Assembly: GCA_963846575.1 (NCBI GenBank) | Contig: CAWJWJ010000002.1 | Location: 544,001-608,000, forward strand | Direction: 5' to 3' | DNA from: an uncultured Nitrospiraceae bacterium | GTDB taxonomy: Bacteria; Nitrospirota; Nitrospiria; Nitrospirales; Nitrospiraceae | Length of the DNA: 64,000 nucleotides | In this document: positions 46,790 to 64,000 of the stretch, in pieces | Layout of the letters: every line of letters starts with the position of its first letter | How positions within the stretch are numbered: position 1 is the first letter of the stretch | Position numbers and translations under genes: made by a program | The notes under the pieces: generated by a model | The model's database searches: none | Told to the model about the DNA's origin: nothing | The model's input: the letters and a program-made list of their open reading frames with translations, nothing else

Positions 46790-46790
46790 T

Positions 46791-47408
46791 ATGAGTCTGA
46801 ATGCGATCAGTCTGGACGGTCTTCGCAGTATTCCGATAGGTCAAAAAATCGCACTGCTCGGATTGCTCGTGGCGGCGATTCTGGTCGGATTTTATTTCTA
46901 TGTCGTCGAACCGAAGGGTACTGAATTAGTCGCGGTTCAGGGACAGGTGGCTCAGTTGGACACCGAGATTCAAAATCTCACACTGAAGATGAAGCATCTG
47001 GATGAACTCGTGGCAGCCAGTAAGCAACTGGAGATTGAGTTGGCAGCCAAAAAAGAACGCCTCCCGCCGGAAGAGGAAGCGGTTATGTTGCTCAAACAAG
47101 TGTCGGATCTTGGGCTTCGGTTGGGACTGGATTTTCGGCTCTGGAAGCCGGGTCCCCAGGCAGAGGATCCGTCAAAATTATTCATTCGAATGCCGATCAA
47201 CGTGGAGGTGGCCGGTGGATATCATACGGCTGCTATCTTCTTCGACCGGATCAGTAAACTGTCCCGTATTGTCACCGTTCAGGATGTGCGGATCGGAGCG
47301 CCCCGGGTTGATCAAGGACGAGTGGTGACGCAAACGGTATTCGATCTGGTGGCCTACGCCGCCCCACAGGAAAAGAGCGCTGCCGGACCGGTAGTGAAGC
47401 CGAAGTGA
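46791..47408 (+). CDS. pilO: Type IV pilus assembly protein PilO
   Basis: TM plus coiled coil, LP..EE, GGYH...FFDRISKLSRIV. Confidence 0.92.
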   Translation: MSLNAISLDGLRSIPIGQKIALLGLLVAAILVGFYFYVVEPKGTELVAVQGQVAQLDTEIQNLTLKMKHLDELVAASKQLEIELAAKKERLPPEEEAVMLLKQVSDLGLRLGLDFRLWKPGPQAEDPSKLFIRMPINVEVAGGYHTAAIFFDRISKLSRIVTVQDVRIGAPRVDQGRVVTQTVFDLVAYAAPQEKSAAGPVVKPK

Positions 47409-47448
47409 CGAATGGGCCCGACTCACGTCCAACGCAAGGGGAAGCATC

Positions 47449-48060
47449 GTGAAGATACGAGTATGGCGGAGTAAGTGGATTGCCCTGGCGAACATCGGGG
47501 CGATACTGGTGGTGGGCGGCATGGCCTTGCCCGGGGAATCCAAAAGCCTTCCCCACCTTCGTCAAGTCGCATCCATGCGTCCGGCTGACTCCTTGAAGGT
47601 CATGCCGCTCCCCGAGGCACAAAAGCCTGTGCCGAGTTTCGAATCGTCCGCTCAGCCCGTGAGTCCGTCGGTGTCGCAGCCGGGGGAATCGTTGCCCCTG
47701 ACATTCTCCGGACTCTCATACGATCCTTCCGGCCGTCGCGATCCCTTTCTGCCCATCTTGCAGTCAGGCGAACAGGATGCGCTGGATTCCAGTCTCCCTC
47801 CGCTGCAGCGGGTGGGCTTGACGGAGCTGAGTTTGATCGCTGTGCTCTGGGGAAATTACGGTTATACGGCCATGGTTCAAACACCCGACGGCAAAGGATA
47901 CAGTATTCGCCGCGGAACGAGGATCGGGCCCAATAACGGGGTGGTCAGTTCAATCACCGAACGAGGTATCATCGTTCAAGAGCGGTTCACGGACGTGTAC
48001 GGGAATAAGCAGGAGCGAGAATATGTGAAGCTTCTGCACCCGAAAGAGGGCACAGAATGA
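47449..48060 (+). CDS. pilP: Type IV pilus assembly protein PilP
   Basis: YDPSGRRDPF, AMVQTPDGKGY, IGPNNG; lies between pilO and pilQ. Confidence 0.88.
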   Translation: MKIRVWRSKWIALANIGAILVVGGMALPGESKSLPHLRQVASMRPADSLKVMPLPEAQKPVPSFESSAQPVSPSVSQPGESLPLTFSGLSYDPSGRRDPFLPILQSGEQDALDSSLPPLQRVGLTELSLIAVLWGNYGYTAMVQTPDGKGYSIRRGTRIGPNNGVVSSITERGIIVQERFTDVYGNKQEREYVKLLHPKEGTE

Positions 48061-50048
48061 AACAAGCACAGGTTGGTGTTCATCCGTTGCTGAGTGTCAC
48101 TGTCATTGCCGGGGTGTTGGGATTTGCCGCCTATGGGCAGGCCGTCATGCCCGGTGAGACAACCGGACTGCCTGGATTGACGCAGGTTGCCGGTCCCGAC
48201 GCCGAAGGGCTGTCGATGGGCAGCACACTCGACACCGCGCAGGACGCGACAGTTGGAGCTCCGGCAACTGTGTTAACCAAGGTCGAAGCCAAATCAGAAG
48301 GAAGCCGGGTCGCGGTGCTCCTGACCAGTGACGGTATATTGATTCCTACCGTGAAAATGATAGGGGAGCGCCGCATGGTCCTCGACATGCCGGGTATCCA
48401 ATCGGATGGACGTCAGTCACAAGTACTCGTTGGCCACCCTCTCTTGAAGCGGATTCGGTTTGGGTACCATCCGGAAAAGGTGCGCTTGGTGCTTGATTTG
48501 ACGCAGTCCGTCGACCACAGCATTCAGTCGACCGACGGTCGTCTAATCGTAACACTGGAGCCCAAGACGGCTGTGGCGACGAATGAGGCAGTTACGGCTG
48601 AGCCTGAGGCGCTGTCGTCGCAGGTCCTTGCACCGCACAGCCTGCCGACCTCCACATTCCAAGCCCCTGCCCATCTGATGCTCATTACTCATAAAGCACC
48701 CAAGGCCTTGTTGCATGCCCAGTCCATTCAGTTAAATGCCGAGTCATTTCAAAAGGACGATAAGAAGACGGACACCAGTGATGTTGTCCACGGGTCGTCA
48801 CGTTTTATCGGGCGCCGCATTTCCCTGGATTTTCAGCAGGCCGACATCAGCAATGTCCTGCGGTTGATTGCCGAAGTTAGCGGATTCAACATCGTGGTCG
48901 GCGAGGGCGTCAAAAATAAGGTCACGATGAAGCTGGCGAATGTTCCGTGGGATCAGGCACTCGAGATGCTTCTGAAGATGAATGCCTTAGGCATGATCCG
49001 CCAGGGCAATATCGTCTGGGTTGATACACTGCAGAATATCGCCAAGCAGCAGGACGAAGAGGCGCGTGCCAAAGATTCGAAGGCGAAGGCCGAGCCGATC
49101 GTCACACGCGTGTTCTACATCCGCAACCTCAACGCGCTGGAAGTCCAGACGTCGCTTCGGCAAAACCTGAGCCCGCGGGGCACCATGACGGTCAGCGCCG
49201 CGAGCAATGCTCTCATCATCAGCGATACCGAGTCCAAGTTGGACGTGCTGCGGCAACTGTTGGATGGAGTGGATCTTGAGGTGCCGCAAGTGCAGATCGA
49301 AGCGCGCATTGTTCAGGCGGATACTACCTATACACGGTCGCTGGGTGTCCAATGGGGAATTCAAAACGTCAACCAGTTGGGAGCGTCGAGTGGGACATCC
49401 GCGTTCAAGACAGGCACCACAGGGAGCTTCGGTGCTCAAGTGTCAGACTTCCTGATCAACTTGCCTGCCAACCCCGGGTTGCCGTCTGTGCCCGGTGCGG
49501 GATTCTCAATTGGAAAAACCGATGGAGCCATGTTGGATGTCCGGCTGTCAGCCGGCGAACTGCTGGGATTGACCAAGGTCATCGCGGCGCCGAAGATCAC
49601 TACGCTGGATAAGCGAGACGCCAAAATTGCACAGGGAGAGTCTATCCCTTTTCAAACTACTTCGTTACAGGGAACACAGACCACATTCGTGGATGCCAAC
49701 CTGGAGTTGAACGTGACTCCCCAGATCACTTCACGGGACCCAAAGGAGATCGGCAAACAGATTCTGATGAAAGTACGAGCGACCAGGAATGCCGTTGGTG
49801 CGCGAAGCAACCCTGCCGGTCCGAGCATTGATCGTCGCGAGGCTACGACCCAGGTTCTGGTACGTGACGGGGAGACGATGGTCATTGGCGGTGTTTTCGT
49901 CGACACCCAGTCGAACAATGTGGCGGGAATCCCCTATCTGTCACGAGTTCCGGTCCTGGGGTGGTTATTCAAGAATAAGACTGAGAATGTGTCCAAGCAG
50001 GAACTCTTGATCTTCCTGACCCCGACGATCGTTCGATCGACAACTTGA
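48057..50048 (+). CDS. pilQ: Type IV pilus secretin PilQ
   Basis: AMIN-like N-terminus, ISLDFQQADI, VPWDQAL, QVQIEARIV, GIPYLSRVPVLGWLFK, ELLIFLTP. Confidence 0.95.
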   Translation: MKQAQVGVHPLLSVTVIAGVLGFAAYGQAVMPGETTGLPGLTQVAGPDAEGLSMGSTLDTAQDATVGAPATVLTKVEAKSEGSRVAVLLTSDGILIPTVKMIGERRMVLDMPGIQSDGRQSQVLVGHPLLKRIRFGYHPEKVRLVLDLTQSVDHSIQSTDGRLIVTLEPKTAVATNEAVTAEPEALSSQVLAPHSLPTSTFQAPAHLMLITHKAPKALLHAQSIQLNAESFQKDDKKTDTSDVVHGSSRFIGRRISLDFQQADISNVLRLIAEVSGFNIVVGEGVKNKVTMKLANVPWDQALEMLLKMNALGMIRQGNIVWVDTLQNIAKQQDEEARAKDSKAKAEPIVTRVFYIRNLNALEVQTSLRQNLSPRGTMTVSAASNALIISDTESKLDVLRQLLDGVDLEVPQVQIEARIVQADTTYTRSLGVQWGIQNVNQLGASSGTSAFKTGTTGSFGAQVSDFLINLPANPGLPSVPGAGFSIGKTDGAMLDVRLSAGELLGLTKVIAAPKITTLDKRDAKIAQGESIPFQTTSLQGTQTTFVDANLELNVTPQITSRDPKEIGKQILMKVRATRNAVGARSNPAGPSIDRREATTQVLVRDGETMVIGGVFVDTQSNNVAGIPYLSRVPVLGWLFKNKTENVSKQELLIFLTPTIVRSTT

Positions 50049-50054
50049 CAGGTC

Positions 50055-50209
50055 CTGGGAAGACCAGTTAATAATCGCCTCCATTGATGACAGTATGCTG
50101 TCTCGATGGGGGCGAATCCCACGGAACGTGCTTCCTCGCCGGCTTACTAGGCGCTTCTTCCGGGCTTTCCCTCTCACACAGACAGATTCACCATCATAGG
50201 TCTTCCCAG
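50055..50209 (+). ncRNA. Candidate structured RNA in the pilQ-aroB intergenic region
   Basis: Perfect 11-bp inverted repeat CTGGGAAGACC (50055-50065) / GGTCTTCCCAG (50199-50209) encloses a long hairpin (50075-50115). Its G-U pairs favour the + strand. Confidence 0.3.
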
Positions 50210-50438
50210 CTGAAATTAGCGTCAGGGGGGATCTACGCCTGAGGGCCCACGGTGCCCGTTTCTCCCGCACTGTGTATTGGTACACTTGCTCTCTGCTGGC
50301 ACCCATAATATCTGATAACGAAGGATGTTCTCTGGGCTTGTCTCAAAATGTCAGGCCGGATCAGGTGGGTGCACTATGAACGTTCCCCACCCCTTCCATA
50401 ACTGAAAGGATCAGCGAAAGTCTTCTGTGTCCTCTCTT

Positions 50439-51596
50439 ATGACTCTTCCCGATACCGACAGCCTTCGCCAAACCATTCATGTCGAACTCGGAGCGCGCAG
50501 CTACGCCATCCACCTGCAACGTGATCTCTTGGGGTCGATTGGACAAGAATTGAAGCGGCTCGGGTGCTCAGGGAAAGTAGGAATCATCACCGACCGAAAT
50601 CTGGCCGGCCGCTATCTCAAGGGGGTGAGCCGGATTCTAAAAACCGCCGGATTTGCCGTCGTTCCCGTTGTGCTTGTTCCTGGAGAGCGGACGAAAACCC
50701 TGCGCTCTATTACGGCGATTATGGATGCTCTGGTAGAGGCCAAATTTGAGCGCACGTCAACGTTGCTGGCGCTGGGCGGTGGGGTGATCGGCGATCTCAC
50801 GGGATTCGCGGCAGCAATTTACCAGCGCGGTATTCCATTTGTGCAGGTGCCCACCAGCTTGGTGGCTCAGGTTGACTCCAGTGTCGGTGGGAAGACGGGT
50901 GTCGACCATCCCAAGGGAAAAAACCTGATCGGTGCCTTCAATCAGCCGCGTGCGGTATTGATCGATCCGGCGACGTTGTCGACTTTGCCGGCGCGTGAGT
51001 GGAGGGCAGGGCTGGGCGAAGTCATCAAGTATGGGGTGATTGCGGACGAGGCGTTCTTTGAGTATTTGGAACAGCATATAGAACCGATCTTGAGGTTGGA
51101 TGACGATGCTGTTGGACGAATCGTGAAACGGTCCTGCGAAATAAAAGCGCAGGTCGTATCCGAGGATGAACGTGAAACGGATCGGCGTCGCATTCTGAAT
51201 TTTGGTCACACCATCGGTCATGCCCTGGAATCCCTCTGCGGATACCGTGGATTGATTCATGGTGAAGCAGTGGCGGTCGGGATGGTATACGAGGCGGACC
51301 TGTCGAGGCATTTGGGTCTATGCGATGAAGCTCTGGTTACCCGTCTACGCGCCTTGATCCGGGCGGCCGGCCTGCCAACCTCTCTGCCCTCTGTCACGTT
51401 TAGCTCCCTCTGGCGCGCTATGCAGCAGGACAAGAAGGTATCGGCGGGAACGGTCTACTGCGTCCTGCCGGAACGAATCGGCTCCGTCCGCGTCGTTCCC
51501 CTGGAGAAAGGGAACGTCCGGGCATGGTTCGATGCCGTTCGTGCTAGTGAAGCGCCGGGTAGAAGAATCCGCCCAACCAAGCGACATTCCCGATAG
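50439..51596 (+). CDS. aroB: 3-dehydroquinate synthase
   Basis: ALGGGVIGDL, QVPTSLVAQVDSSVGGKTG, GKNLIGAF, LNFGHTIGHALE, HGEAV. Start is 50427 (GTG) or 50439 (ATG). Confidence 0.97.
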   Translation: MTLPDTDSLRQTIHVELGARSYAIHLQRDLLGSIGQELKRLGCSGKVGIITDRNLAGRYLKGVSRILKTAGFAVVPVVLVPGERTKTLRSITAIMDALVEAKFERTSTLLALGGGVIGDLTGFAAAIYQRGIPFVQVPTSLVAQVDSSVGGKTGVDHPKGKNLIGAFNQPRAVLIDPATLSTLPAREWRAGLGEVIKYGVIADEAFFEYLEQHIEPILRLDDDAVGRIVKRSCEIKAQVVSEDERETDRRRILNFGHTIGHALESLCGYRGLIHGEAVAVGMVYEADLSRHLGLCDEALVTRLRALIRAAGLPTSLPSVTFSSLWRAMQQDKKVSAGTVYCVLPERIGSVRVVPLEKGNVRAWFDAVRASEAPGRRIRPTKRHSR

Positions 51597-51602
51597 GAAC
51601 CT

Positions 51603-52856
51603 ATGGCGGCCAAGCGCACGGTCAATCAGCTGGAACAGGCGTTGCGAGAGAAAACCCGCGAGGTCGACGTTCTGCATCGCATTAGCGAGTCCATCAGCAA
51701 TACCCTCGATCTGGAGTCGGTCCTTCGGCATATCGTCGACATGGTCGTCGAGGTGACCAAAGCCGATGCCTGCCTGCTGTACTTGATCTCGGATGGGAGG
51801 GACGAACTCATCCTGAGGGCTTCGAAAAATCCCCATCCTAAATTAATCGGACGGATCACCATCGGGTTGGGCGAAGGGATCACCGGCTGGGTGGCCCGGG
51901 AGCGGACCCGTGTGGTGATTCCGAATAGCGCAAGCGATGATTCGCGATTTAAATTTTTCCATAACCTTCCAGAAGACCGCTATCAGGCGTTTGTCTCCGT
52001 GCCCATTACGACCAAGCAGGAAGTGGTCGGGGTCATCAACGTGCAGCATAAGCGGTCGCGCCGGTATCGTCCGGACGAACTGGCGTTGCTTTCGACGGTC
52101 GCCACACAGGTGGGTGGGGCTATTGAAAATGCACGTCTGTACGATCAAATGACGCGCAAGGCCCTGCAACTCGACACACTGTCGCAGGTGTCGGAAACTG
52201 TGTCCTCGAATCGATTGATCGAGGATGTGTTGCAGCTGATTGTGACGATGACGGCGCAAATGATGGGCTCAAAGATCTGTTCCATCATTTTGCTGGATCA
52301 GGCGAGCGGCGAACTTCGGATCGCCGCCACGCAAAGTTTGAGCGAGCAATACCGGCGCAAACCCAATGTGAGGATCGGTCAGAGCATCAGCGGGCGGGCG
52401 GTTCAGGATCGTCGACCGATCATCGTCCCGGATGTTACGAAAGACAGCAGCTATATGTATCCGGATATGGCAGGGAAAGAGGGACTCTGTTCGCTGCTGT
52501 GCGTGCCGATGCTGGTACGGGAGAAGGCTATCGGGGTCATTAACACCTATACGTCCAAACCACATACCTTCACGAGTGAGGACGTGAAACTCATGCAGGC
52601 CATCGCCAACCAGGCAGCCATTTCGATCGAGCATACGACTTTATTGGAGAAGTCGTTTGAGATGCAGGAGGCCTTGCAGGTCCGCAAGTTGCTCGACCGG
52701 GCTAAGGGATATTTAATGCGGGCGAAACGGTTATCCGAAGACGAGGCCTTCAAGCTGATTCAAAGGCAAAGCATGGACCTCCGAAAATCCATGCGGGAAA
52801 TCGCTGAAGCCATTCTGTTGGCGGGCGAAATCGAAGATCGCGCCGATAAAAAATAG
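51603..52856 (+). CDS. GAF-GAF-ANTAR RNA-binding antiterminator (one-component)
   Basis: Two tandem GAF domains (GEGITGWVA...VSVPI...VVGVINV; GQSISGRAV...LCVPML...IGVIN) and a C-terminal ANTAR (RKLLDRAKGYLM...SEDEAFKLIQRQSMDLRKSMREIAEAI). Confidence 0.9.
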   Translation: MAAKRTVNQLEQALREKTREVDVLHRISESISNTLDLESVLRHIVDMVVEVTKADACLLYLISDGRDELILRASKNPHPKLIGRITIGLGEGITGWVARERTRVVIPNSASDDSRFKFFHNLPEDRYQAFVSVPITTKQEVVGVINVQHKRSRRYRPDELALLSTVATQVGGAIENARLYDQMTRKALQLDTLSQVSETVSSNRLIEDVLQLIVTMTAQMMGSKICSIILLDQASGELRIAATQSLSEQYRRKPNVRIGQSISGRAVQDRRPIIVPDVTKDSSYMYPDMAGKEGLCSLLCVPMLVREKAIGVINTYTSKPHTFTSEDVKLMQAIANQAAISIEHTTLLEKSFEMQEALQVRKLLDRAKGYLMRAKRLSEDEAFKLIQRQSMDLRKSMREIAEAILLAGEIEDRADKK

Positions 52857-52863
52857 GGCTCTC

Positions 52864-53826
52864 CTAGGGTGTGCGTTCTTCAGGTGCGGTTGGACGCGGC
52901 ACGACGGAGGGCGAACTCCCCCGATTGAGCTGCTGAGTGTCCAATTGACGTTTGATATCCTGCAGTTCCCTGCGTAGTTCCTCGATCTCTGCATCCTTCC
53001 TTCTCAGATTGTCCTGAATGGCTCGAAGGTCTGTCTCGGGTTCCACTGCTTGCGTTGGCCGCTGGACGGAAGTCGGGCGGGGAGTTTCCCCAGCGAGTCC
53101 CGTCGGCGGCGCAGGGGCGGTCGGAGCGGGCAGTCGTGCCAGTGCATCATAATCAATAATCAGAATGTCCGCCAAGTCCTCGGCAAAGCGTGGTGTAAAA
53201 GACTGGGGGCGCAAGGCTTCCGCAGGAAGAAAGAGGAGATGGCGATTGAGGAGTTGATTGGGCTGGGGAACGCGGCGATTGGGCATGCTGATCGTGTCGG
53301 GGTCATTCGCTCTTCGGCGGTACTCATGCAGAGAAATGTAGAGCGAACGGCCGTATGCGAACACGTGGCCGCTCGTGGTTTCTTTGGCTGACAATTGAAC
53401 GGGTGGTTCGGATGACCCCACTGCAGCGCCAGCTCGTTCCCGATATCCGCCGGTGCCTTCCTGGATCAAGCGAAACCCCACCCGTTGATCTGCGGCAGCC
53501 TGCCTCAGTCCGTCCACGATTGCGGGGGCGAGAAAAGCGACTTCGGACCCTGAAAAGACCGGAACGTTTGGCTGTTCCCGTGAGGTGAGGGCTCTCAGCA
53601 GCCCGGTGTCTTCGTGGATTTTAATGCCCTGTAAGCTGCGCGCGATGAGGGCCTGGTCAAGCCGGATGGGATGGGCTGCCTGAAAGTGGCGGTCAGGAAT
53701 ACGGTCGAGATAGACGGTGCCTTGCTCGGATTGCCGCACAACAAAATCGACTTGTGACCCGGTTGTGCATCCTGTGGCCCAGAGCATCCAGACCAGGGTG
53801 AAGGTGAGAGAGGGAGAGTAGCGCAT
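52864..53826 (-). CDS. Hypothetical lipoprotein with C-terminal coiled coil
   Basis: Start trimmed to MRYSPSL (53826). Hydrophobic segment ending WATGC (lipobox-like), Pro-rich linker and coiled-coil tail. Confidence 0.7.
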   Translation of the reverse strand: MRYSPSLTFTLVWMLWATGCTTGSQVDFVVRQSEQGTVYLDRIPDRHFQAAHPIRLDQALIARSLQGIKIHEDTGLLRALTSREQPNVPVFSGSEVAFLAPAIVDGLRQAAADQRVGFRLIQEGTGGYRERAGAAVGSSEPPVQLSAKETTSGHVFAYGRSLYISLHEYRRRANDPDTISMPNRRVPQPNQLLNRHLLFLPAEALRPQSFTPRFAEDLADILIIDYDALARLPAPTAPAPPTGLAGETPRPTSVQRPTQAVEPETDLRAIQDNLRRKDAEIEELRRELQDIKRQLDTQQLNRGSSPSVVPRPTAPEERTP

Positions 53827-53918
53827 GAGAGTTGGCTCCGACTTTGCCGGCGTCCGAGACCGGCGTAGTGTAGCATAGAGACCCCGTTGGAGAGCGAAGA
53901 ACTGGCCAGTCTCCTCCC

Positions 53919-53948
53919 TTGACAGGAACGCCGTCAAAAGCGTATACA
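53919..53948 (+). promoter_or_regulatory. Candidate sigma70 promoter of the urea operon, overlapped by a TTGAC-N9-GTCAA palindrome
   Basis: TTGACA (53919-53924), 18 bp spacer, TATACA (53943-53948). It lies just upstream of the ANTAR hairpins. Confidence 0.5.
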
Positions 53949-53967
53949 CCCCACCAGTATGCGTTCC

Positions 53968-54033
53968 GGATCAGGACAACGCCGTTCTGATTCTGCGTAG
54001 ACATCGATCACGCAGGGGACAATGACGTCCTTT
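53968..54033 (+). promoter_or_regulatory. ANTAR-binding dual-hairpin RNA motif (P1 53968-53993, P2 54014-54033)
   Basis: P1 GGATCAGGAC-[AACGCC]-GTTCTGATTC and P2 AGGGGAC-[AATGAC]-GTCCTTT. Both have 6-nt loops with A at position 1, G at position 4 and a C-G closing pair. Confidence 0.85.
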
Positions 54034-54069
54034 TGGTCCAATGGTTGGACCGGAAGGGCGTTTTTTTTT
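54026..54069 (+). terminator. Intrinsic terminator (attenuator) in the urea operon leader
   Basis: CGTCCTTTTGGTCCA-ATGGT-TGGACCGGAAGGGCG (15-bp stem including G-U pairs) followed by T9 (54061-54069). Its left arm overlaps P2. Confidence 0.88.
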
Positions 54070-54121
54070 GGCCTCTAGCACCTCCGGTCTGGCAGTCAAA
54101 TCGTGTGTAACCAGGAGGGCT

Positions 54122-55495
54122 ATGAGGATGGGCGCACGAACGTCAGGAGGACTCATACTCGGCTCGGTCGTGCTTATGATCGTTGTCTCCGCAGTTCCGG
54201 TGAGCGCAGAAGACCAGAGTGCAGGAGAGTCGGCGGGAGCGGGCCGCCTGAGCCGTGAAGTGGAGACTCCCCCCGCGGTGATTTGCGGCGGCTGCGTCAC
54301 TCCCAGTTTCGCGGGCGAAGGCAAAGGAAGCATTGTTCCCTATGGTCGTATCGAGCTGGACGCGATATACAGCAACCGAAATACGAATCCACTCGACCCC
54401 GGGCAATTCAATGGCTATGCCACCGCCGCAGGCAAAAGCAGCAATGCGTCCTCCACGCTCAATCCTCGCTATAGCGTGTTCGGCCTGCGTGCCGACCGAA
54501 CGGACGGGAAACATACCTTGACTGGTGTCGTCGAAGCGGATTTCTACAGCCAAACCGACAATGCCGGCAATATCTCGCCTCGCCTGCGGTTGGCCAACGT
54601 CAAATATTCTCCCAACAATAGTCGGACGACCATCACGGCAGGCATGGACTGGACGCCGATCATGTCCTCTCATCCAAACCTGATCGATTTCTCCATCATG
54701 GGTTATAACGGGAACTTGTGGCAGCGACTCCCGCAGATTACCGTGAAGCATCAATTTACCGACAACGTGAATGGTCTGTTGACGGTCATGCGATTCGAAC
54801 GCGGATTATCGGCCATTCAGCCGCAGACGCAACGACGAACGTTTCAAGGGGCCGGCGCGGGGGCGGCGCCGGGTAGTTGCGGGACGAGCGGTTTCGGCTG
54901 TTCTGAAAACGCCTTCAACGATCCGGTACAGATGCCCTATGTGGGGACTCGATTTGCCTATACAGGCACGGGTGACCAGGCAGGCTTTATGGTCGCACTC
55001 AATGCCGCGTTTAGGCATTATCGATCGGCGCCGACGGCCGGGGGGATTCCCGCGGGCAACGATATCAATTCGTATCTCGTGGGGGCGGAACTCGCGGTGC
55101 CTTTGACCAACCGGTTGAGATTCACCGGTGAGATTGCCTACGGACAGGCGCTGGGAGTGGAGTTTTTCCGATACGGACAGGAGCGAAACCTGGGCACGGG
55201 CAAATCGATCCGGACCGTGGTCGGCTGGGGAGAGTTGGATTATGCCTTCGATCGGCAGCTCACGCTCATCGCCGGCTATGGGTTCGACAACCCGCTGAAC
55301 TCAGACCTGCGAGGCACCAGCGCCGGGCCTGACACCCAATATGTACTCAATCATCGGACCTACCTGACGGCCGTCCGGCATATTTGGGGCGATTTGTACA
55401 CGTCGTTCGAGTGGAATCACCTCATGACCGAATGGTCCACCGGGGAGCATTTTGCAGGAGACAATTTCATGCTCTCAACTTGGTACAACTTTTAG
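54122..55495 (+). CDS. Outer-membrane beta-barrel porin, putative urea/short-chain amide channel (DcaP/FmdC-like)
   Basis: SD AGGAGG then ATG 54122. Signal peptide, YGRIELD, VEADFY, PRLRLA, amphipathic beta strands and C-terminal WYNF. First gene of the urt/ure operon. Confidence 0.75.
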   Translation: MRMGARTSGGLILGSVVLMIVVSAVPVSAEDQSAGESAGAGRLSREVETPPAVICGGCVTPSFAGEGKGSIVPYGRIELDAIYSNRNTNPLDPGQFNGYATAAGKSSNASSTLNPRYSVFGLRADRTDGKHTLTGVVEADFYSQTDNAGNISPRLRLANVKYSPNNSRTTITAGMDWTPIMSSHPNLIDFSIMGYNGNLWQRLPQITVKHQFTDNVNGLLTVMRFERGLSAIQPQTQRRTFQGAGAGAAPGSCGTSGFGCSENAFNDPVQMPYVGTRFAYTGTGDQAGFMVALNAAFRHYRSAPTAGGIPAGNDINSYLVGAELAVPLTNRLRFTGEIAYGQALGVEFFRYGQERNLGTGKSIRTVVGWGELDYAFDRQLTLIAGYGFDNPLNSDLRGTSAGPDTQYVLNHRTYLTAVRHIWGDLYTSFEWNHLMTEWSTGEHFAGDNFMLSTWYNF

Positions 55496-55524
55496 CCTGG
55501 CATGACGGCGAAAGGAGTCTCACG

Positions 55525-56889
55525 ATGATCTCTCCGAAACCACAGAGTACAGACCAGGAGATTGCCACGAGCAAGGCCGAGGCCCTTCCGTCGCGCCGCG
55601 ATTTCCTCTGGCAGAGTTCACGAACCGCGGCCGGCATCGGGGTAGCGGCGTTGCTGGGAAACCTGGGGCATTGGGCATTGTCATATGGGGCCGATAAGGA
55701 ACCGATCAAGGTCGGGGTGTTGCACTCGCTCAGCGGTACCATGGCCATCAGTGAGGTGTCGCTGAAGGATGTCGTGTCGATGGCGGTGGAAGAGATCAAC
55801 GCGAAGGGCGGCCTGTTGGGACGACCCTTGAAGCTGGTCATCGTCGATCCGGCCTCTAATTGGGATCTCTTCGCCGAAAAAGCCAAACAATTGTTAGTGC
55901 AGGATAAGGTGGCGGTGGTGTTTGGTTGTTGGACATCGGTCAGCCGGAAGTCCGTATTGCCGGTGTTCGAGAAGAACAACGGGCTGCTCTTTTATCCGGT
56001 CCAGTATGAAGGGGAGGAATGCTCACGGAATGTGTTCTACACCGGCGCCGCGGTGAATCAGCAGGCCGTGCCTGCCGTGGAGTATCTGATGAGCAAGGAA
56101 GGGGGAGGGTTCAAAAAGTTCTATCTGCTCGGGACCGATTACGTCTATCCGCGCACGACGAACAAGATTCTCCGTGCCATGTTGCTCGCCAAGAAAGTCC
56201 CTGCGGCCAACATCATGGAAGAGTACACTCCGTTCCATCATCAGGATTACCAAACCATCGTCGGAAAGATTAAAAAGTTTGCGGCCGGCGGAGGCGGGTG
56301 TGTGATCAGCACGATCAATGGCGACAGCAATGTGCCGTTCTACAAAGAGTTTGCCAACCAAGGGTTGCGGGCGGAAGATGCGCCTATTATGGCCTTCAGC
56401 GTCGCGGAGGACGAGTTGCGTGGGATGGACAAGACGGCTCTGGTCGGGCATCTGGCGGCCTGGAATTACTACCAGAGCGTCGACACGCCGCAGAACAAAC
56501 AGTTCGTGGCCAATTTTAAGGCCTACTGCAAAAAGAACAATCTGCCGGAGGGTGACAAGCGCGTCACCGACGATCCGATCGAAGCCGCCTACTTTGGCGT
56601 ACATGTCTGGAAGCAAGCGGTTGAGAAGGCGGGCGGCACCGATGCAGATGCGGTACGAAAAGCCGTCTATGGCCAGAAGTTTCCGGCTCCCGGTGGGGAA
56701 ATCATGATGGACGAGGCTAACCATCATACCCACAAGCCGGTGTTGATCGGCGAGATTCTCAAGGACGGTCAATTTAAAGTCGTCTGGCGCTCGAAGGGGT
56801 TGGTCAAACCGGAACCCTGGAGCGAATACACGAATCCGGAAAAGGGGTGTGACTGGGTGAAACATCAAGGGACCTATAAGAGGGCCTGA
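55525..56889 (+). CDS. urtA: Urea ABC transporter substrate-binding protein (Tat signal)
   Basis: SRRDFL Tat motif, KVGVLHSLSGTMAISE, FGCWTSVSRKSVLPVFE, LLFYPVQYEG, GTDYVYPRTTN. Confidence 0.96.
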   Translation: MISPKPQSTDQEIATSKAEALPSRRDFLWQSSRTAAGIGVAALLGNLGHWALSYGADKEPIKVGVLHSLSGTMAISEVSLKDVVSMAVEEINAKGGLLGRPLKLVIVDPASNWDLFAEKAKQLLVQDKVAVVFGCWTSVSRKSVLPVFEKNNGLLFYPVQYEGEECSRNVFYTGAAVNQQAVPAVEYLMSKEGGGFKKFYLLGTDYVYPRTTNKILRAMLLAKKVPAANIMEEYTPFHHQDYQTIVGKIKKFAAGGGGCVISTINGDSNVPFYKEFANQGLRAEDAPIMAFSVAEDELRGMDKTALVGHLAAWNYYQSVDTPQNKQFVANFKAYCKKNNLPEGDKRVTDDPIEAAYFGVHVWKQAVEKAGGTDADAVRKAVYGQKFPAPGGEIMMDEANHHTHKPVLIGEILKDGQFKVVWRSKGLVKPEPWSEYTNPEKGCDWVKHQGTYKRA

Positions 56890-56938
56890 TGGGGAAGCGA
56901 GAATCAGCGCGCTGGATGCGGGGGAGGGTGCGCGGCGA

Positions 56939-58480
56939 ATGAGGCGCATCACCGGGATGGCAGTGCTCTGGTGCTGTGTGATCTGGGGTATGACCGACGC
57001 ATTGGCGGCGGAGGAGCTTGTCGGCGTCACGCCGTCAGCGGCGGTTGAGCAGGCGCTCAAGGATCTCTCGAGCGATGAGGAAACAACGCGCGAGCAGGCG
57101 ATTCATGTCCTGATCGAGCAGGGCGATGCGGCCGCTCTCCCGCGCTTGGACGCATTGCGAGAGAATGCGGATCGACGCCTACGCATGGCCATCAAGCCGG
57201 TGGCCGATGCCTGGCGTCACCGCGCAAACCTGTCCAGTCCGGATGCCGATGCCCGGCGTTCGGCGGCGATCGACCTGGGGACGAGCGGACGGGGTGTGGC
57301 CATTCCCTGGTTGGAATCTGCGGTCGACACCGAATCCCATCGGTGGGTTCGGTATGCGATGCAGGAGTCGATCCAACTCCTGAAACTCGCCTCGGATAAT
57401 CCTGTGATCAAGGCGCAGGCGGCGGCAAAGCTGGGCGAGCTGCGCAGCCAGAATGCCGTTCCGGCGCTGAAGGAATTGGTGCAGGTGGCCAAGGAATCGA
57501 CTAGCACCGAGGATCAGCATAACGTCGCGGGGGTGGCGGCTGTCGCCATCGATCGGATCGAATCCTGGAATGTCTGGTCCACGGCGATCGAAACGTTGTT
57601 CCGCGGCATCAGTCTGAGTTCGATTCTCCTCATCATGTCCGTCGGGCTCGCGATCGTCTTCGGATTGATGGGCGTCATCAACATGGCCCACGGCGAACTG
57701 ATGATGATCGGCGCCTATGCGACCTTTGTCATCCAGGAATGTTTTAAGCTGTATCTTCCTCCGGCCTGGTTCGATGCCTATTACCTGACTGCCCTTCCGG
57801 CCGCATTTCTGGCGGCGGCCTTGTTCGGATTGATCCTGGAAGCGACCGTCATCCGGTTTCTATATGGCCGCCCGCTCGAAACGATGCTAGCGACCTGGGG
57901 AGTCAGCCTCATTCTTATTCAGGCGGCGCGAATTTATTTCGGGGATCTGACGGCGGTGGCGGCTCCCGTTTGGCTTAACGGCGGCACGCAGGTCATGGTG
58001 GGAGTGTTTCTGCCCTTCAATCGCCTGTTCATCATCGGGCTTTCCATCCTCTGTGTCACCGGCATTTATTTGTTACTGTTCAGGTCACCTGTGGGACTCC
58101 GGGTGCGGGCCGTCACGCAGAATCGACACATGAGCGCCTGTCTGGGTATCCCCACCAGAAAAGTCGATGCCTACACCTTTGCCTTCGGATCCGGCCTGGC
58201 CGGCATCGCAGGCTGGGCCCTGACCCTGGTGGGGAACGTCGAGCCGGGACTCGGGCAGAACTACATCGTGGACTCCTTCATGGTAGTCGTGACCGGCGGT
58301 GTCGGTAAACTTGCGGGGACCATTATTGCCTCCCTGGGAATCGGGGGGTTGAATAAGCTCATGGAGCCGAGTCTGGGAGCCGTCTACGCAAAAGTCTTGA
58401 TCCTGGTGTTGGTGATTCTCTTCCTGCAGCGGCGGCCGTCGGGGCTGTTTGCGATTCAAGGGCGTCACGCCGAAGGATAG
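56939..58480 (+). CDS. urtB: Urea ABC transporter permease with N-terminal HEAT-like domain
   Basis: GLAIVFGLMGVINMAHGE, LYGRPLETMLATWG, RAVTQNR, YIVDSFMVVV. Confidence 0.95.
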   Translation: MRRITGMAVLWCCVIWGMTDALAAEELVGVTPSAAVEQALKDLSSDEETTREQAIHVLIEQGDAAALPRLDALRENADRRLRMAIKPVADAWRHRANLSSPDADARRSAAIDLGTSGRGVAIPWLESAVDTESHRWVRYAMQESIQLLKLASDNPVIKAQAAAKLGELRSQNAVPALKELVQVAKESTSTEDQHNVAGVAAVAIDRIESWNVWSTAIETLFRGISLSSILLIMSVGLAIVFGLMGVINMAHGELMMIGAYATFVIQECFKLYLPPAWFDAYYLTALPAAFLAAALFGLILEATVIRFLYGRPLETMLATWGVSLILIQAARIYFGDLTAVAAPVWLNGGTQVMVGVFLPFNRLFIIGLSILCVTGIYLLLFRSPVGLRVRAVTQNRHMSACLGIPTRKVDAYTFAFGSGLAGIAGWALTLVGNVEPGLGQNYIVDSFMVVVTGGVGKLAGTIIASLGIGGLNKLMEPSLGAVYAKVLILVLVILFLQRRPSGLFAIQGRHAEG

Positions 58481-58506
58481 TCTCGAGCAGGGAGAAGGGA
58501 GAACTG

Positions 58507-59643
58507 TTGGTACCAGAGTCGAATGTGGAGCGGCGCGAAGGCACGGTCTTTTGGTTGGTCGGGTTTGTGCTTCTCTTTGTCCTGCCGGTGCTCAACGTGT
58601 TGCCGGCGGAGGATTCCTGGCTGCGTGTCTCCGATTTCGCGCTGAATCGATTTGGAAAGTTCCTGGCCTTTGCCATTCTGGCGCTCGGGCTCGATTTGAT
58701 CTGGGGATACGCAGGCATCCTCAGCCTGGGGCAGGGCGTGTTCTTCGGCTTGGGCGCCTACTGCATGGGTATGCATCTGATGCTCGCGATCGGAAGTGAG
58801 AGCGTCTACGGCAGCACCTTGCCGGACTTCATGGTGTGGAATCAGGTTACGGAGCTACCTTTTTTCTGGACGCCCTTTTACAGCTTTCCCGCGGCCGTCC
58901 TTGCGGGCCTGCTGGTTCCTGCAGGCTTCGCGCTTCTATTCGGCTTCCTCGCGTTTCGCAGCCGTATTCGGGGTGTGTATTTTGCCATTATCACACAGGC
59001 GTTGGCTCTTATGGCCTGGCTGGTCTTCAACCGGAACGAAACAAACCTGGGGGGAACGAACGGTCTCACCGACTTCAAGACGATCGTGGGTTTTCGTCTG
59101 GCCGAGTCCGGCACCCAGCTGGCGCTCTATGTCATCACGGTGCTGTGTCTAGGCGGAGCTTATCTGCTCTGCCGCTGGATCATCGCCTCGCGCGCCGGCC
59201 GGGTCCTGATCGCCATTCGCGACAGCGAGCCGCGCGTTCTCTTCTCGGGCTACTCGCCGGCCAATTACAAACTATTCGTCTTCGTGGTCTCGGCGGCGCT
59301 GGCGGGGCTCGCGGGAATTCTCTACGTTCCGCAAGTCGGCATCATTACCCCGGCGCAGATGGGCGTGTTGCCCTCGCTTGAAATGGTGATCTGGGTCGCG
59401 GTGGGCGGTCGCGCGACCCTGGTCGGCGCCATTGTCGGAGCGGTCGGGGTGAACCTCGGACGCAGCATTCTCACCAATCACTTTCCGGAGTTCTGGCCAT
59501 TCTTTCTGGGCGGGCTCTTTGTCGTCGTGGTGCTGGTATTCCCTGACGGGGTTATGGGCGTCACCAGAAGAGTCAGTGAAAAAATGTCGGAATGGACCGT
59601 TCGTCAGCGAAAGGCTCAGGGCGTCGAGGAGGAACGGACATGA
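58507..59643 (+). CDS. urtC: Urea ABC transporter permease
   Basis: LDLIWGYAGILSLGQGVFFGLGAY, LPDFM, FRSRIRGVYFAIITQA, YVPQVGII. Confidence 0.95.
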   Translation: MVPESNVERREGTVFWLVGFVLLFVLPVLNVLPAEDSWLRVSDFALNRFGKFLAFAILALGLDLIWGYAGILSLGQGVFFGLGAYCMGMHLMLAIGSESVYGSTLPDFMVWNQVTELPFFWTPFYSFPAAVLAGLLVPAGFALLFGFLAFRSRIRGVYFAIITQALALMAWLVFNRNETNLGGTNGLTDFKTIVGFRLAESGTQLALYVITVLCLGGAYLLCRWIIASRAGRVLIAIRDSEPRVLFSGYSPANYKLFVFVVSAALAGLAGILYVPQVGIITPAQMGVLPSLEMVIWVAVGGRATLVGAIVGAVGVNLGRSILTNHFPEFWPFFLGGLFVVVVLVFPDGVMGVTRRVSEKMSEWTVRQRKAQGVEEERT

Positions 59644-60407
59644 CGGAGCATGGTTCGATCATCTATCTGGAAGGTGTGACTGTCGACTATGACGGGTTCA
59701 AAGCACTGAACAATCTCAACTTCATCGTCAATCACCGTGAGTTGCGGGTGGTCATCGGGCCGAACGGCGCCGGAAAGACCACTTTGCTGGACGTGATTAC
59801 CGGTAAGACGAAACCGGCGGCCGGCCGCGTGATCTTCGGCAAAGACACGGATCTCATCGGCATGCGCGAATACGAGATCACGCAATTGGGGATCGGGCGA
59901 AAATTCCAGGCCCCCTCAATCTACGGCAATCTCACGGTGTGGGAGAATCTCGACCTGTCGTTGAAGCGGCCTAGTAAGGGCGTCTTGTTTACGCTGAGGG
60001 GCCGGTCTACGGCGGCGGAACAGCAACAAATCGATGAAGCCTTGGAGACCATCGGATTGACGGCGCAAGCGCGCTTGCGCGCAGGGTCGCTCTCTCATGG
60101 CCAGAAGCAATGGCTTGAAATCGGCATGGTCATTTTGCAGGATCCGGCCTTGTTGCTGGTCGATGAGCCGGTAGCCGGCATGACGGACGAGGAGACCGCA
60201 CAAACGGGGCGGTTGCTCCAGTCGTTGGCGGAAAAACATGCCATTATCGTCATTGAGCACGACATGGAATTCGTGCGGCAGATCGCGCGAACCGTCACGG
60301 TGCTGCATGAGGGGACCGTCATTTGCGAGGGGCCGGTGGAGACGGTTCAAGCTGATCCCCGCGTCGTGGAAATTTATCTTGGCTGCCAGAAGGTGGCGCA
60401 TGCGTAA
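59640..60407 (+). CDS. urtD: Urea ABC transporter ATP-binding protein
   Basis: [42 protein letters not shown]. Confidence 0.95.
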   Translation: MTEHGSIIYLEGVTVDYDGFKALNNLNFIVNHRELRVVIGPNGAGKTTLLDVITGKTKPAAGRVIFGKDTDLIGMREYEITQLGIGRKFQAPSIYGNLTVWENLDLSLKRPSKGVLFTLRGRSTAAEQQQIDEALETIGLTAQARLRAGSLSHGQKQWLEIGMVILQDPALLLVDEPVAGMTDEETAQTGRLLQSLAEKHAIIVIEHDMEFVRQIARTVTVLHEGTVICEGPVETVQADPRVVEIYLGCQKVAHA

Positions 60408-60461
60408 GCGGCCCCGCCCGAACTCTGCGTGAATCTCCCGGGGAGTCACCGGAACAACACG

Positions 60462-61172
60462 ATGCTGCAGCTTGAGAAGGTCAACGTCTACTACGGTGAG
60501 AGCCATATATTGCGGAACGTCTCATTTTACATCGAGGCAGGCAAGGTGGCCTGCGTCATGGGCCGGAACGGTGTGGGCAAGTCGACGACGTTGAAGGCAA
60601 TTATGGGCCTGTTGCCGGTGCGCAGCGGACGTGTCCTCTTCGATGGCGTGGACATCACCAAGGCTTCGACCGACCGGCGGGCCAGGCGCGGCCTTGCGTA
60701 TGTGCCGCAAGGTCGGGAAATCATTCCGCATCTTACCGTGCGCGAAAATCTCCAGCTGGGCTATTGGGCGCGCGGGAGCGCCACGAACGGGGGCTCTGAA
60801 AAAGCTGCCTTCGATGAGGTCTTCACGTTATTCCCCAAGCTCACGCAAATTCTGGAACGGCCAGGCGGGGTCTTGAGTGGTGGCGAGCAGCAGCAATTGG
60901 CCATCGGGCGTGCGCTGCTGTCGGATCCCAAAGTCTTGCTGCTCGATGAACCGACCGAGGGCATTCAACCTTCCATCGTCGACCAGATCGAAGACGTGAT
61001 CGTCGGGTTTAAAACCGCGCGTCGATTTGCCATCGTCCTGGTGGAACAGGGCCTTCATTTCGCGGCACGGCTGGCGGACAGCTACGTCGTGATGGCCAAA
61101 GGAGCGGTGATGGCGGCGGGGAGGAAGGACGAGTTGAGTGCCGAGATGGTGAAGCAGCATTTGACGGTGTAA
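60462..61172 (+). CDS. urtE: Urea ABC transporter ATP-binding protein
   Basis: YYGESHIL, GRNGVGKST, YVPQGREI, LSGGEQQQLAIGRAL, DEPTEGIQPS. Start is 60429 (GTG) or 60462 (ATG). Confidence 0.95.
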   Translation: MLQLEKVNVYYGESHILRNVSFYIEAGKVACVMGRNGVGKSTTLKAIMGLLPVRSGRVLFDGVDITKASTDRRARRGLAYVPQGREIIPHLTVRENLQLGYWARGSATNGGSEKAAFDEVFTLFPKLTQILERPGGVLSGGEQQQLAIGRALLSDPKVLLLDEPTEGIQPSIVDQIEDVIVGFKTARRFAIVLVEQGLHFAARLADSYVVMAKGAVMAAGRKDELSAEMVKQHLTV

Positions 61173-61361
61173 CGCAAGCCGGGCAGGCGGAGCATGTCTG
61201 TCGAGCCATGGGGACATTCGTGAGCCGCCCTCGAATACGTGGCAGACATACGGCCCTCTGGCCGATTCATCTCGTTGCCGCAGATGAGACCCATTGAACT
61301 CATCTGCCCGCCTCGCTAGTATTCACGCCCTGGGTTGAGGCGTGGAGGGGAAGCAGACGAA

Positions 61362-61766
61362 GTGCGTGAATCTAGAAACAGTGTGAGCGCTCCCGGCCTT
61401 GCGGGGATTCTCATGGTGAGCGTCCTCTCCGCCTGCGCTACAGGTCAGTACACCCCGCTGGCGGGGGCCGAAAAGGACCAGGTCGATCAGCTGAAAGAAA
61501 ATGTCTACCGCGTCGAGTATCGTGTCAGTTCATTTACCTCGCAGGAGCAGTTGGATGCCTACCTGCGCCGGCGTTGTGCAGAATTGACGTTGCGGGAAGG
61601 GTACGATTTTTTTCATCTGGCGCAACGGGCGGATGTCCTGGCCCTCTCACGGCGGACGTCGATGACAGTGACGATGTATAAAGGACAGAAACCCCCCGGC
61701 GCGGTTGATCTCCATGATGCCAGGGAAGTTTTGGCCAAGTCGGCAATACTGCCACAGAATGAATGA
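61362..61766 (+). CDS. Small hypothetical lipoprotein (resembles the CC0125/CC1285-type family)
   Basis: Lipobox VLSAC and YRVEYRV..FTS...YLRRRCAELTLREGYDFF. Family assignment is from recollection only. Confidence 0.6.
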   Translation: MRESRNSVSAPGLAGILMVSVLSACATGQYTPLAGAEKDQVDQLKENVYRVEYRVSSFTSQEQLDAYLRRRCAELTLREGYDFFHLAQRADVLALSRRTSMTVTMYKGQKPPGAVDLHDAREVLAKSAILPQNE

Positions 61767-61792
61767 CGCATGACGTGTGACGAGGGCGGGAT

Positions 61793-62095
61793 ATGCATCT
61801 GACACCGCGTGAGCAGGAGAAACTGTTGATCTATGTAGCGGCAAATCTGGCCAAAGACCGCAAAGCGCGGGGGTTGAAGCTCAACCACCCGGAGGCGGTG
61901 GCATTGATCACCGCTGAGATTCTGGAGGGAATCCGCGACGGCAAGTCCGTGTCGGAGTTGATGAGTTACGGCGCCACGCTGCTCACTCGAAAGGATGTCA
62001 TGTCAGGTGTGCCGGAAATGATCCCGGAGCTTCAGGTCGAAGGCACATTTCCGGATGGCACGAAACTGGTGACCGTGCATGAGCCGATCCGATAG
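61793..62095 (+). CDS. ureA: Urease gamma subunit
   Basis: [41 protein letters not shown]. Confidence 0.99.
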
Positions 62096-62103
62096 GGAAT
62101 AAA

Positions 62104-62583
62104 ATGAAGCAGAAAGCGAAGACCGTAGCGAGGACATCTCGACCCAAGGCATCCTCCTCCGTCAATCGGCGCGATGGACTTCAGCCTGCGCCCATCATCC
62201 CCGGCGAGGTGATTCTCGGCGAAGGCGACATCATTGCGCTGCAGGGTCGGCAGACGGTTGAACTGACGGTATCGAATACCGGCGACAGGCCGATTCAGGT
62301 GGGGTCGCACTGCCACTTCTTCGAGGCCAATCGGGCGCTGACGTTCGACCGCAAGAAGGCCTATGGATTCCGGCTCCAGATACCGGCCGGGACGGCGGTG
62401 CGGTTTGAGCCTGGTGAGTCGAAGCGGGTGACGCTGGTCGCGCTTGGCGGCAATCGCGTGGTCTATGGCATCAATGGTTTGGTGAATGGCAAACTGGACG
62501 ATCCGAATGTGCGTGAGCAGGCACAGGCGGCGGCACGGGAACAGGGTTTCATGAGCACAGAGAAATGGCCCCCGCGGTCATAG
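62104..62583 (+). CDS. ureB: Urease beta subunit
   Basis: [36 protein letters not shown]. Confidence 0.98.
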
Positions 62584-62594
62584 GCGAAAGGAGC

Positions 62595-62720
62595 ACGGTT
62601 GCTCAAAACGGTCCCCCCACGAGGCCGCAGGCAAGGCCAGAGCCGGACGTATACCCTTGAGAGTAGGTTGAGGACTCTGGCGGGCCGGGCACGAGGTTGG
62701 GGGCGGTTCTCAGCAGCCGT
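62595..62720. repeat. About 126-bp imperfect palindromic (REP/MITE-like) element between ureB and ureC
   Basis: Terminal inverted repeats ACGGTTGCTCAAAAC / GTTCTCAGCAGCCGT, plus inner CCCCC/GGGGG and CCAGAG/CTCTGG pairings. Confidence 0.55.
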
Positions 62721-62725
62721 CTGAT

Positions 62726-64000
62726 ATGAAAATTCCGCGACGCCACTATAACGATCTCTACGGCCCGACTGCCGGCGATCGCATACGCCTGGCCGATACA
62801 GATCTGCTGGTTGAAATCACGCGCGATCTGACCGTGCCGGGTGAGGAGGCGAAGTTCGGCGGCGGCAAGGTCATTCGTGACGGCATGGGCCAATCGCCGG
62901 CTGCCACCCGGGCGAACGGCGCGCTCGATGTCGTGATCACCAATGCCATCATCATCGACTGGTGGGGCGTGGTGAAGGCCGACATCGGGATTCGCGATGG
63001 ACGAATCGCGGGAATCGGGAAGGCGGGAAACTCCGATCTGATGGACGGCGTGACACAGGGCATGGAAATCGGGCCCTGCACGGAGGTGTTGTCGGCGGAA
63101 GGGAAAATCATCACGGCCGGCGGGATCGATTCGCACATCCATTTCATCTGTCCGCAAATCATCACCGAGGCGCTGGCCAACGGACTGACGACGTTGATCG
63201 GTGGCGGGACCGGCCCGGCCACCGGCACCAAGGCGACGACCTGCACGCCCGGACCCTGGAACATACATCGCATGCTGGAGGCGGCGGACGGCTTCCCGAT
63301 CAATCTCGGTTTTCTGGGCAAAGGGAATTCGTCACTGCCCGAGGGGTTGAATGAACAGGTGGAGGCGGGCGTCATCGGGTTGAAGCTGCATGAAGACTGG
63401 GGGACGACGCCGGCCGCCATCGATACCTGCTTGAGCGTGGCGGAGCGGTATGACGTGCAGGTGGCGATCCACACCGATACGATCAACGAGGCCGGCTTTG
63501 TCGAGGACACGATCAGGGCGTTTAAGGGCCGGACGATTCACTCGTTCCATACTGAAGGCGCCGGCGGGGGACATGCTCCCGACATCATCAAAGTTTGCGG
63601 CGAGGCGAACGTGTTGCCTTCCTCGACCAATCCCACCATGCCCTTCACGGTCAATACGATGGATGAACATCTGGACATGTTGATGGTCTGTCACCATCTG
63701 AATCCGCGGGTGCCGGAAGACATCGCGTTTGCCGAGTCGCGTATCCGGCGGGAAACGATCGCAGCGGAGGATATTCTGCACGACATGGGGGCGATCAGCA
63801 TCATGTCGTCCGACTCTCAGGCGATGGGGCGGGTGGGCGAGGTCATCATCCGCACCTGGCAGACGGCGCATAAAATGAAAGTACAGCGGGGGCACCTGTC
63901 GGAGCGCGGCATCGACCGGCAGGATGGTCAGCATGACAACTGGCGCGCGCGGCGTTACGTGGCGAAATATACGATCAATCCCGCGATCGCCCACGGGGTG
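62726..64000 (+). CDS. ureC: Urease alpha (catalytic) subunit, runs off the window end
   Basis: Not in ORF track (no stop in window). [83 protein letters not shown]. Confidence 0.99.

Follow-up and report, generated by a model that had tools for sequence, protein, structure and literature searches.

What controls the genes for urea uptake and urease in Nitrospiraceae? The question is raised by a window of 64,000 nucleotides (nt) from an uncultured member of this family (the whole stretch of DNA analysed; contig CAWJWJ010000002.1, positions 544,001 to 608,000), in which a gene for a GAF-GAF-ANTAR protein stands upstream of a porin-urtABCDE-ureABC operon whose leader carries two hairpins and an intrinsic terminator. 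An initial annotation had proposed that the protein gates urea use by antitermination in this leader. The mechanism at the leader is well supported by sequence evidence (conservation, a chance test and the joint loss of protein and motif), whereas its restriction to urea did not hold, as the same motif occurs before nadE, amt and FNT-cynS. The leader probably belongs to a general nitrogen regulon and is not a urea switch, because it is one of four such sites in a nitrogen gene cluster.

Anatomy and conservation of the leader

The elements of the leader and the gene of its putative reader are as follows, in window coordinates:
51603..52856, plus strand: GAF-GAF-ANTAR one-component regulator, 417 amino acids (aa) (Pfam GAF x2 and ANTAR)
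53919..53948, plus strand: candidate sigma-70 promoter, TTGACA-N18-TATACA (kept in 23/24 leader loci)
53957..54002, plus strand: basal helix P0, 53957-53964 paired with 53995-54002 around P1 (covariation)
53968..53993, plus strand: hairpin P1, hexaloop AACGCC at 53978-53983 (sequence and fold)
54014..54033, plus strand: hairpin P2, the candidate antiterminator, hexaloop AATGAC at 54021-54026 (100% of cells paired, nearly invariant)
54024..54069, plus strand: intrinsic terminator with U9 tract, overlapping P2 (terminator call and fold; called in 24/24 leaders)

Promoter, hairpins and terminator thus lie where the initial annotation had put them, and the 15 base pairs (bp) it had noted for the terminator fall inside a stem of 18 pairs, including G-U, at 54024-54062, with T9 at 54061-54069. 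The promoter hexamers, TTGACA at 53919 and TATACA at 53943-53948, are separated by an 18-nt spacer; a consensus scanner made no promoter call here because the -10 hexamer lacks its final T. Both hairpins have stems of at least 3 bp and 6-nt loops with A at the first and G at the fourth position (A1/G4). The distance from loop to loop is 43 nt, leaving a gap of about 20 nt between the extended stems or 29 nt between the 4-bp cores. The left arm of the terminator is made of P2 loop bases and the entire right arm of P2, so that, as had been claimed, P2 and the terminator exclude each other. Folding energies agree, the terminated fold being 8.6 kcal/mol more stable than the one with P1 and P2 enforced (-51.9 vs -43.3 kcal/mol). 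When folded, a nascent RNA stopping just past P2 forms P1 and P2 unaided. In the host genome a further hairpin, at 53991-54017, competes with P0; it was rejected as a switch element, having no A1/G4 loop and no apparent conservation. An Rfam scan gave no leader match at the gathering score and four chance-level hits.

This anatomy very probably represents a transcription attenuator that is off by default and whose reader is the GAF-GAF-ANTAR protein encoded next to it. Transcription would start near 53955 from the sigma-70 promoter. With no active protein, the terminator would take the right arm of P2 and RNA polymerase would stop near 54065. Under nitrogen shortage, an ANTAR dimer would bind the hexaloops, P1 serving as recruiting site and P2 as antiterminator, and the polymerase would read through into porin-urtABCDE-ureABC-ureFGD. 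The same protein would gate the other nitrogen-assimilation units of the cluster. Binding and read-through are proposed by analogy with EutV and GnfR, and the direction of control and the ligand are suggested by the target genes and by the kinship of the GAF domains.

Could such an arrangement arise by chance? The host genome holds 280 A1/G4-hexaloop hairpins, which form six pairs within 15-120 nt against 0.99 expected, and four pairs spaced 40-46 nt against 0.065 expected; five of the six close pairs fall in one 24-kb nitrogen cluster. A strict leader scan of the same genome returned three sites, one of them a likely chance hit, and missed the nadE site, where the terminator is bulged. The initial annotation had set persistence of the hairpins in relatives holding the operon as a test. 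The porin was matched in 25 of 39 genus genomes, and P2 and the terminator are kept in 24 of the 25 porin-urt loci; both promoter hexamers are present in 23 of 24 leader-bearing loci, the sole miss being cut by a contig end. At one locus (L055, genome G014) the leader has collapsed, leaving a single hexaloop and a weakened terminator, and the porin match covers residues 1-158.

A check for covariation in relatives had also been proposed; covariation was seen for P1 across the family and for P0, though not for P1 and P2 within the genus. Searching 80 family loci by loop sequence alone gave 137 matches, of which 59 (56 unique) have a T-run and lie on the coding strand. At these 56 sites, which are related and not independent, the stem positions left free by the search pattern are paired (P1 bp 2-4 in 54, 53 and 52 of 56; P2 bp 2-4 in 55, 55 and 56), whereas pairing is much poorer among the remaining 73 unique matches. 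P1 bp 3-8 lie above column shuffles and show compensatory G-C/A-U/C-G exchanges, the shuffle values not being probabilities because the sites are related. Loop spacing at the family sites is mostly 38-53 nt. P0, a helix derived from the alignment's own consensus, has 92.5% of cells paired in urt leaders and a covariation of 0.272 against 0.172 shuffled (0/500), above all slid controls; with P0 formed, P2 would lie no more than 12-14 nt from the base of P1. A covariance model (R1) captured the terminator fold and was left unused for searching.

The strong and nearly invariant terminator bears on a different account, in which control lies mainly at initiation, through an NtrC-like or other factor, with the attenuator as a leaky or minor second layer. 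The host genome does carry more than 20 sigma-54 activator-like genes and a sigma-54-like motif upstream of the leader, Geobacter stacks both layers (PMC2995071), and the urea genes of N. moscoviensis are moderately transcribed without urea (PMC6606698). However, the sigma-54-like motif was found in 1 of 24 leaders and was rejected, no NtcA, GlnR/TnrA or NtrC box was found at the four leaders of the cluster with simple patterns, nothing in the host genome matched over the NtrC cut-off, and the N. moscoviensis locus lacks this leader. Control mainly at initiation is therefore considered unlikely.

The GAF-GAF-ANTAR protein and known antitermination systems

The protein at 51603-52856 has the domains first assigned to it. 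Its ANTAR domain scores 68.9 bits against PF03861 (cut-off 27.3), and this single match makes it the sole ANTAR domain found in the host genome. The protein is 92-97% identical to its closest named records, nearly all from Nitrospira or Nitrospiraceae (95% to N. defluvii), and a tblastn search of plasmids gave distant GAF proteins only. Among the RNA-contact residues of EutV (PMC8934654), alignment with 6wsh shows R142, K143, K149, E160, M172 and R175 kept, K147 replaced by R and Y164 by F; the pattern F164, Q168, D173 matches Rv1626 (1s8n). The predicted structure is locally confident, with a predicted local distance difference test (pLDDT) of 84 and a predicted template modelling score (pTM) of 0.55.

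What might such a protein sense? By sequence, the nearest solved structures to GAF1 are Geobacter 3e0y and the EI-Ntr GAFs 3ci6 (E 1.7e-22) and 3trc, and GAF1 matches PRK11061 residues 5-163 (E 5.5e-39); the second half of the protein resembles the NifA N-terminus. EI-Ntr (PtsP) has a GAF domain that binds glutamine (PMC4848567). GAF1 is alike in sequence and fold, but the identity is about 30%, and the output is predicted RNA binding where EI-Ntr performs phosphotransfer. By this sequence and model likeness, GAF1 may sense glutamine or the glutamine/2-oxoglutarate balance, acting as an off-switch when nitrogen is ample; the case is evenly balanced, because Foldseek ranks cyclic-nucleotide tandem GAFs first for the whole chain and EI-Ntr GAFs as close single-domain fits (template modelling score 0.85-0.87 by target length).

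ANTAR antitermination of nitrogen genes is established, and two known systems come close to this one. In Geobacter sulfurreducens, a conserved GnfR site, CAGGCAANGGCGCC, lies upstream of and overlaps leader terminators (PMC2995071). GnfK/GnfR likewise pairs an ANTAR protein with a nitrogen regulon, and its hairpin is nearly identical to P2; yet GnfR acts as a response regulator, is phosphorylated and stands under a sigma-54 cascade, whereas the Nitrospira protein is a one-component GAF-GAF regulator with a sigma-70-type promoter at its leader. The eut leaders of Enterococcus faecalis also have two A1/G4 hairpins with 6-nt loops, P2 lying over the terminator (PMC3369931, PMC8934654), and most RNA-contact residues of EutV are kept in the Nitrospira protein. 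EutV differs in its REC input, against GAFs here, and in the eut linker of 5-12 nt against 43 nt loop to loop, a spacing outside the EutV type.

The initial annotation knew of no such control for urt/ure operons, but that novelty falls away. Ramesh 2012 (PMC3369931) names urea transporters among predicted targets in its main text, and its supplement 6 places ANTAR RNAs before 'Urea transporter genes; urease subunits' in Desulfotomaculum carboxydivorans; urea transporter and urease targets were thus predicted in 2012. Further predictions there, in D. carboxydivorans and others, share the glnA, amt/PII, nitrite reductase and NAD+ synthetase targets. The hits of supplement 6 span about 40-108 nt, and the 43-nt spacing of the Nitrospira leader fits these spans for ANTAR-target RNAs. 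Nitrospira, Thermodesulfovibrio and Leptospirillum have no entry there, and the paper describes GAF-ANTAR proteins as not characterised at that time. A literature search by title and abstract start found nothing on ANTAR or antitermination in Nitrospira. Particular to the lineage are the spacing of mostly 38-53 nt, the covarying P0 and, in distant families, the apparently single-loop leaders.

A probable nitrogen regulon and its loss in apparent clade A comammox

The proposed genome scan for further dual-hairpin leaders gave three more sites, so that four units of the nitrogen cluster are preceded by dual hexaloops: urt-ure, nadE, amt-glnK-glnD-glnA and FNT-cynS-nirA. The last three lie downstream, outside the window. 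The leader of the glutamine-dependent nadE (C2:612028-612115; L056:6028-6115) has 43-nt spacing, a terminator and its own promoter. The site before the unit DUF6733 gene-amt-glnK-glnD-glnA (C2:614060-614085; L056:8060-8085) has 25-nt spacing, is conserved in relatives and lacks an overlapping terminator; its effect may be on translation, on the stability of the RNA or on a terminator further downstream. FNT-cynS-nirA is preceded by a tandem attenuator (C2:621073-621270; L057:1073-1270), in which two loops 43 nt apart with a terminator are followed, 111 nt further on, by a lone third loop with a second terminator, a layout repeated in L197, L199, L201 and L203. A syntenic nitrogen cluster is known from Nitrospira (PMC6311188, PMC5767232), and the available accounts of it in these papers name no ANTAR regulator. 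Nor was a regulator of the cluster named elsewhere in the literature searched, most subscription papers lying outside that search.

These sites also speak against a urea-specific version of the same RNA switch, one whose GAFs would recognise urea or an amide and whose main target would be the urt-ure leader. Synteny between the ANTAR gene and the urt cluster, seen in many genomes, is what such a switch would show. But the motif is also present in the leaders of nadE, glnA, amt and cynS/nirA and, in distant families, ahead of glnA or nadE; the protein is 94-97% identical in genus members without a porin match (25 of 39 matched), and all of this leaves a urea-specific switch quite improbable. 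The motif also stays before nadE in L074 and L203, where the locus has no urea genes.

Variants of the urea locus occur. At L108:12300-17141, and also in L102, L104, L132 and L134, the same promoter and dual hairpin stand before an insertion that encodes a dCache-PAS histidine kinase and a LuxR-type response regulator, upstream of the urea genes; the terminator is weaker in these loci, and the arrangement suggests an ANTAR-to-two-component cascade. In the N. moscoviensis record (L099:11248-11700), urtA directly follows the ANTAR gene, with neither porin nor hairpin leader.

Protein and motif also disappear together. Of the 40 family genomes, 15 lack an ANTAR domain and the other 25 have one each. 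A strict two-loop pattern, derived from the ANTAR-bearing genomes, is found in 25/25 of those with the domain and 1/15 of those without it; the single match shows no P1 stem by eye, and the reversed pattern gave two hits across all 40 genomes. Loose single-loop matches occur in 7 of the 15 ANTAR-lacking genomes; none forms a terminator by eye, and several look like one shared coding stretch. All 15 have amoA and none has an Amt over the cut-off (14 show a weak, probably Rh-type hit), and they look like clade A complete ammonia oxidisers (comammox) because, by the criterion of PMC6311188, amoA is present and Amt absent. Another three genomes carry amoA together with Amt, their AmoA being of a different type (in the two sequences seen); they keep protein and motif, behaving as expected of clade B. 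The transporter gene urtA itself is still found in 12 of the 15. Eleven of their urt loci were fetched, and no hairpin pair was found in the ten with upstream sequence; in six of these ten a similar promoter lies 430-490 nt ahead of urtA and is not followed by a terminator, while the same terminator test is positive in 24/24 ANTAR-type leaders.

This pattern speaks to the view that a genuine attenuator has some other reader (an RNA-binding protein, a small-molecule riboswitch or a ribosome), the ANTAR gene being a mere neighbour. The long spacing unlike eut leaders, the extra conserved helix P0 and the analogy behind ANTAR-leader binding lend it something; set against these are the A1/G4 hexaloops that both hairpins carry, the finding of one ANTAR domain per genome, the joint presence and absence of motif and protein, and the lack of an Rfam riboswitch match. 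Another reader is accordingly the least probable of the alternatives, and very improbable.

Several points weigh against the ANTAR-read attenuator. The co-loss is probably one evolutionary event, not 15, and was scored with a pattern taken from the ANTAR-bearing genomes; the 56 family sites share ancestry, and within the genus, where P1 and P2 are near-invariant, their covariation is not above shuffles (107 and 212 of 500). The amt-unit site has no overlapping terminator, and no hairpin pair was found at L099 or, between the ANTAR gene and urtA, in the ANTAR-bearing loci L180 and L181. In the protein, three EutV contacts are changed (R168Q, N173D, R177S), and the Foldseek ranking favours cyclic-nucleotide GAFs. 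The main tension lies in the spacing: a 14-nt linker cut induction by EutV and a 20-nt extension abolished antitermination (PMC3369931, PMC8934654), and 43 nt is more than EutV tolerates.

Beyond the family, an ANTAR ortholog (E <=1e-60) is present in 17/17 genomes of family f2, 3/3 of f5 and 23/28 of f15, and was not found in other families among the 251 genomes searched. Eight distant-family sites before glnA or nadE all have P2 and a terminator; P1 is canonical in one, two have weak close candidates, and in five the stretch from the candidate promoter to P2 contains no A1/G4 hairpin (L234, L235, L236 and L195 before glnA; L189 before nadE). These apparently single-loop leaders are a lead only, because the sites were picked by eye. 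A single-loop pattern scan did not exceed its reversed control, and only sites forming a terminator by eye were kept (three in f15). A loose two-loop pattern matched 127/251 genomes, many by chance, and was replaced by a stricter one.

A broader reading is offered tentatively, as somewhat doubtful. A one-component, glutamine-sensing GAF-GAF-ANTAR protein might serve Nitrospira and related bacteria as master regulator of nitrogen, working through antitermination and not through an NtrC/NtcA-type factor. The terminator-overlapping hexaloop would be all that it needs, the distant first loop being an optional recruiter, and in clade A comammox the loss of Amt would have been accompanied by that of the protein and its RNA sites. 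Other nitrifiers are supplied by Nitrospira with ammonia from urea and cyanate; the finding offers a candidate regulator and the genes it would target, a possible ligand and a lineage that amounts to a natural knockout. In canonical Nitrospira, ammonium would be predicted to control urt-ure tightly, and in clade A comammox more loosely. N. inopinata belongs to clade A. It shows relatively high urt/ure transcription on ammonia and is still induced on urea (10.1101/2023.08.04.551995); the loss, if true, would explain such loose urea-gene control. The long-spaced and apparently single-loop leaders are also natural test cases for whether ANTAR dimers engage both loops at once or in succession (PMC8934654).

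Host and neighbouring genes

Profile searches found nirA and cynS and no amoA in the host genome, which therefore fits a canonical nitrite oxidiser. The remaining features of the window around the leader are:
52864..53826, minus strand: lipoprotein-like gene of a Nitrospirota family, about 320 aa (open reading frame (ORF); Atlas; syntenic homologs in relatives)
54122..55495, plus strand: DcaP-like outer-membrane porin, ribosome-binding site at 54113 (Atlas 0.98 to porin/DcaP clusters; no Pfam hit)
55528..61172, plus strand: urtABCDE urea ABC transporter (TIGR03407-03411, all over cut-off)
61335..61766, plus strand: small lipoprotein-like ORF (no Pfam match)
61793..64000, plus strand: ureA, ureB and the start of ureC (Urease_beta and ureC matches)

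The order porin-urtABCDE-lipoprotein-ureABC is that of the initial annotation, here backed by TIGRFAM, Pfam and Atlas matches; the first urease gene we take to be ureA from its position and sequence. The genes ureC, ureF, ureG and ureD extend past the window end (ureC/ureG and UreF/UreD profile matches). Gaps within the operon are at most 162 nt, and no strong plus-strand terminator was called there.

The minus-strand gene at 52864-53826, absent from the initial annotation, separates the ANTAR gene from the urt leader, so that the two do not form one transcript. Its product has no Pfam match and scores 0.94-0.96 in Atlas to Nitrospirota hypothetical/lipoprotein clusters, with a low recognition score. 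Opposite-strand ORFs of about 320 aa without a Pfam match flank the urea operon on both sides (52864-53826 and L056:4996-5946), each just before an attenuated promoter. On its other side (window 45144-52856), the ANTAR gene directly follows pilM-Q-like genes and aroB. As the aroB-ANTAR synteny extends out to family f15, the gene may be co-transcribed constitutively. Lastly, an Rfam 5_ureB_sRNA match antisense to ureC (62875-63167, minus strand, 76.6 bits) probably reflects conserved urease coding sequence.

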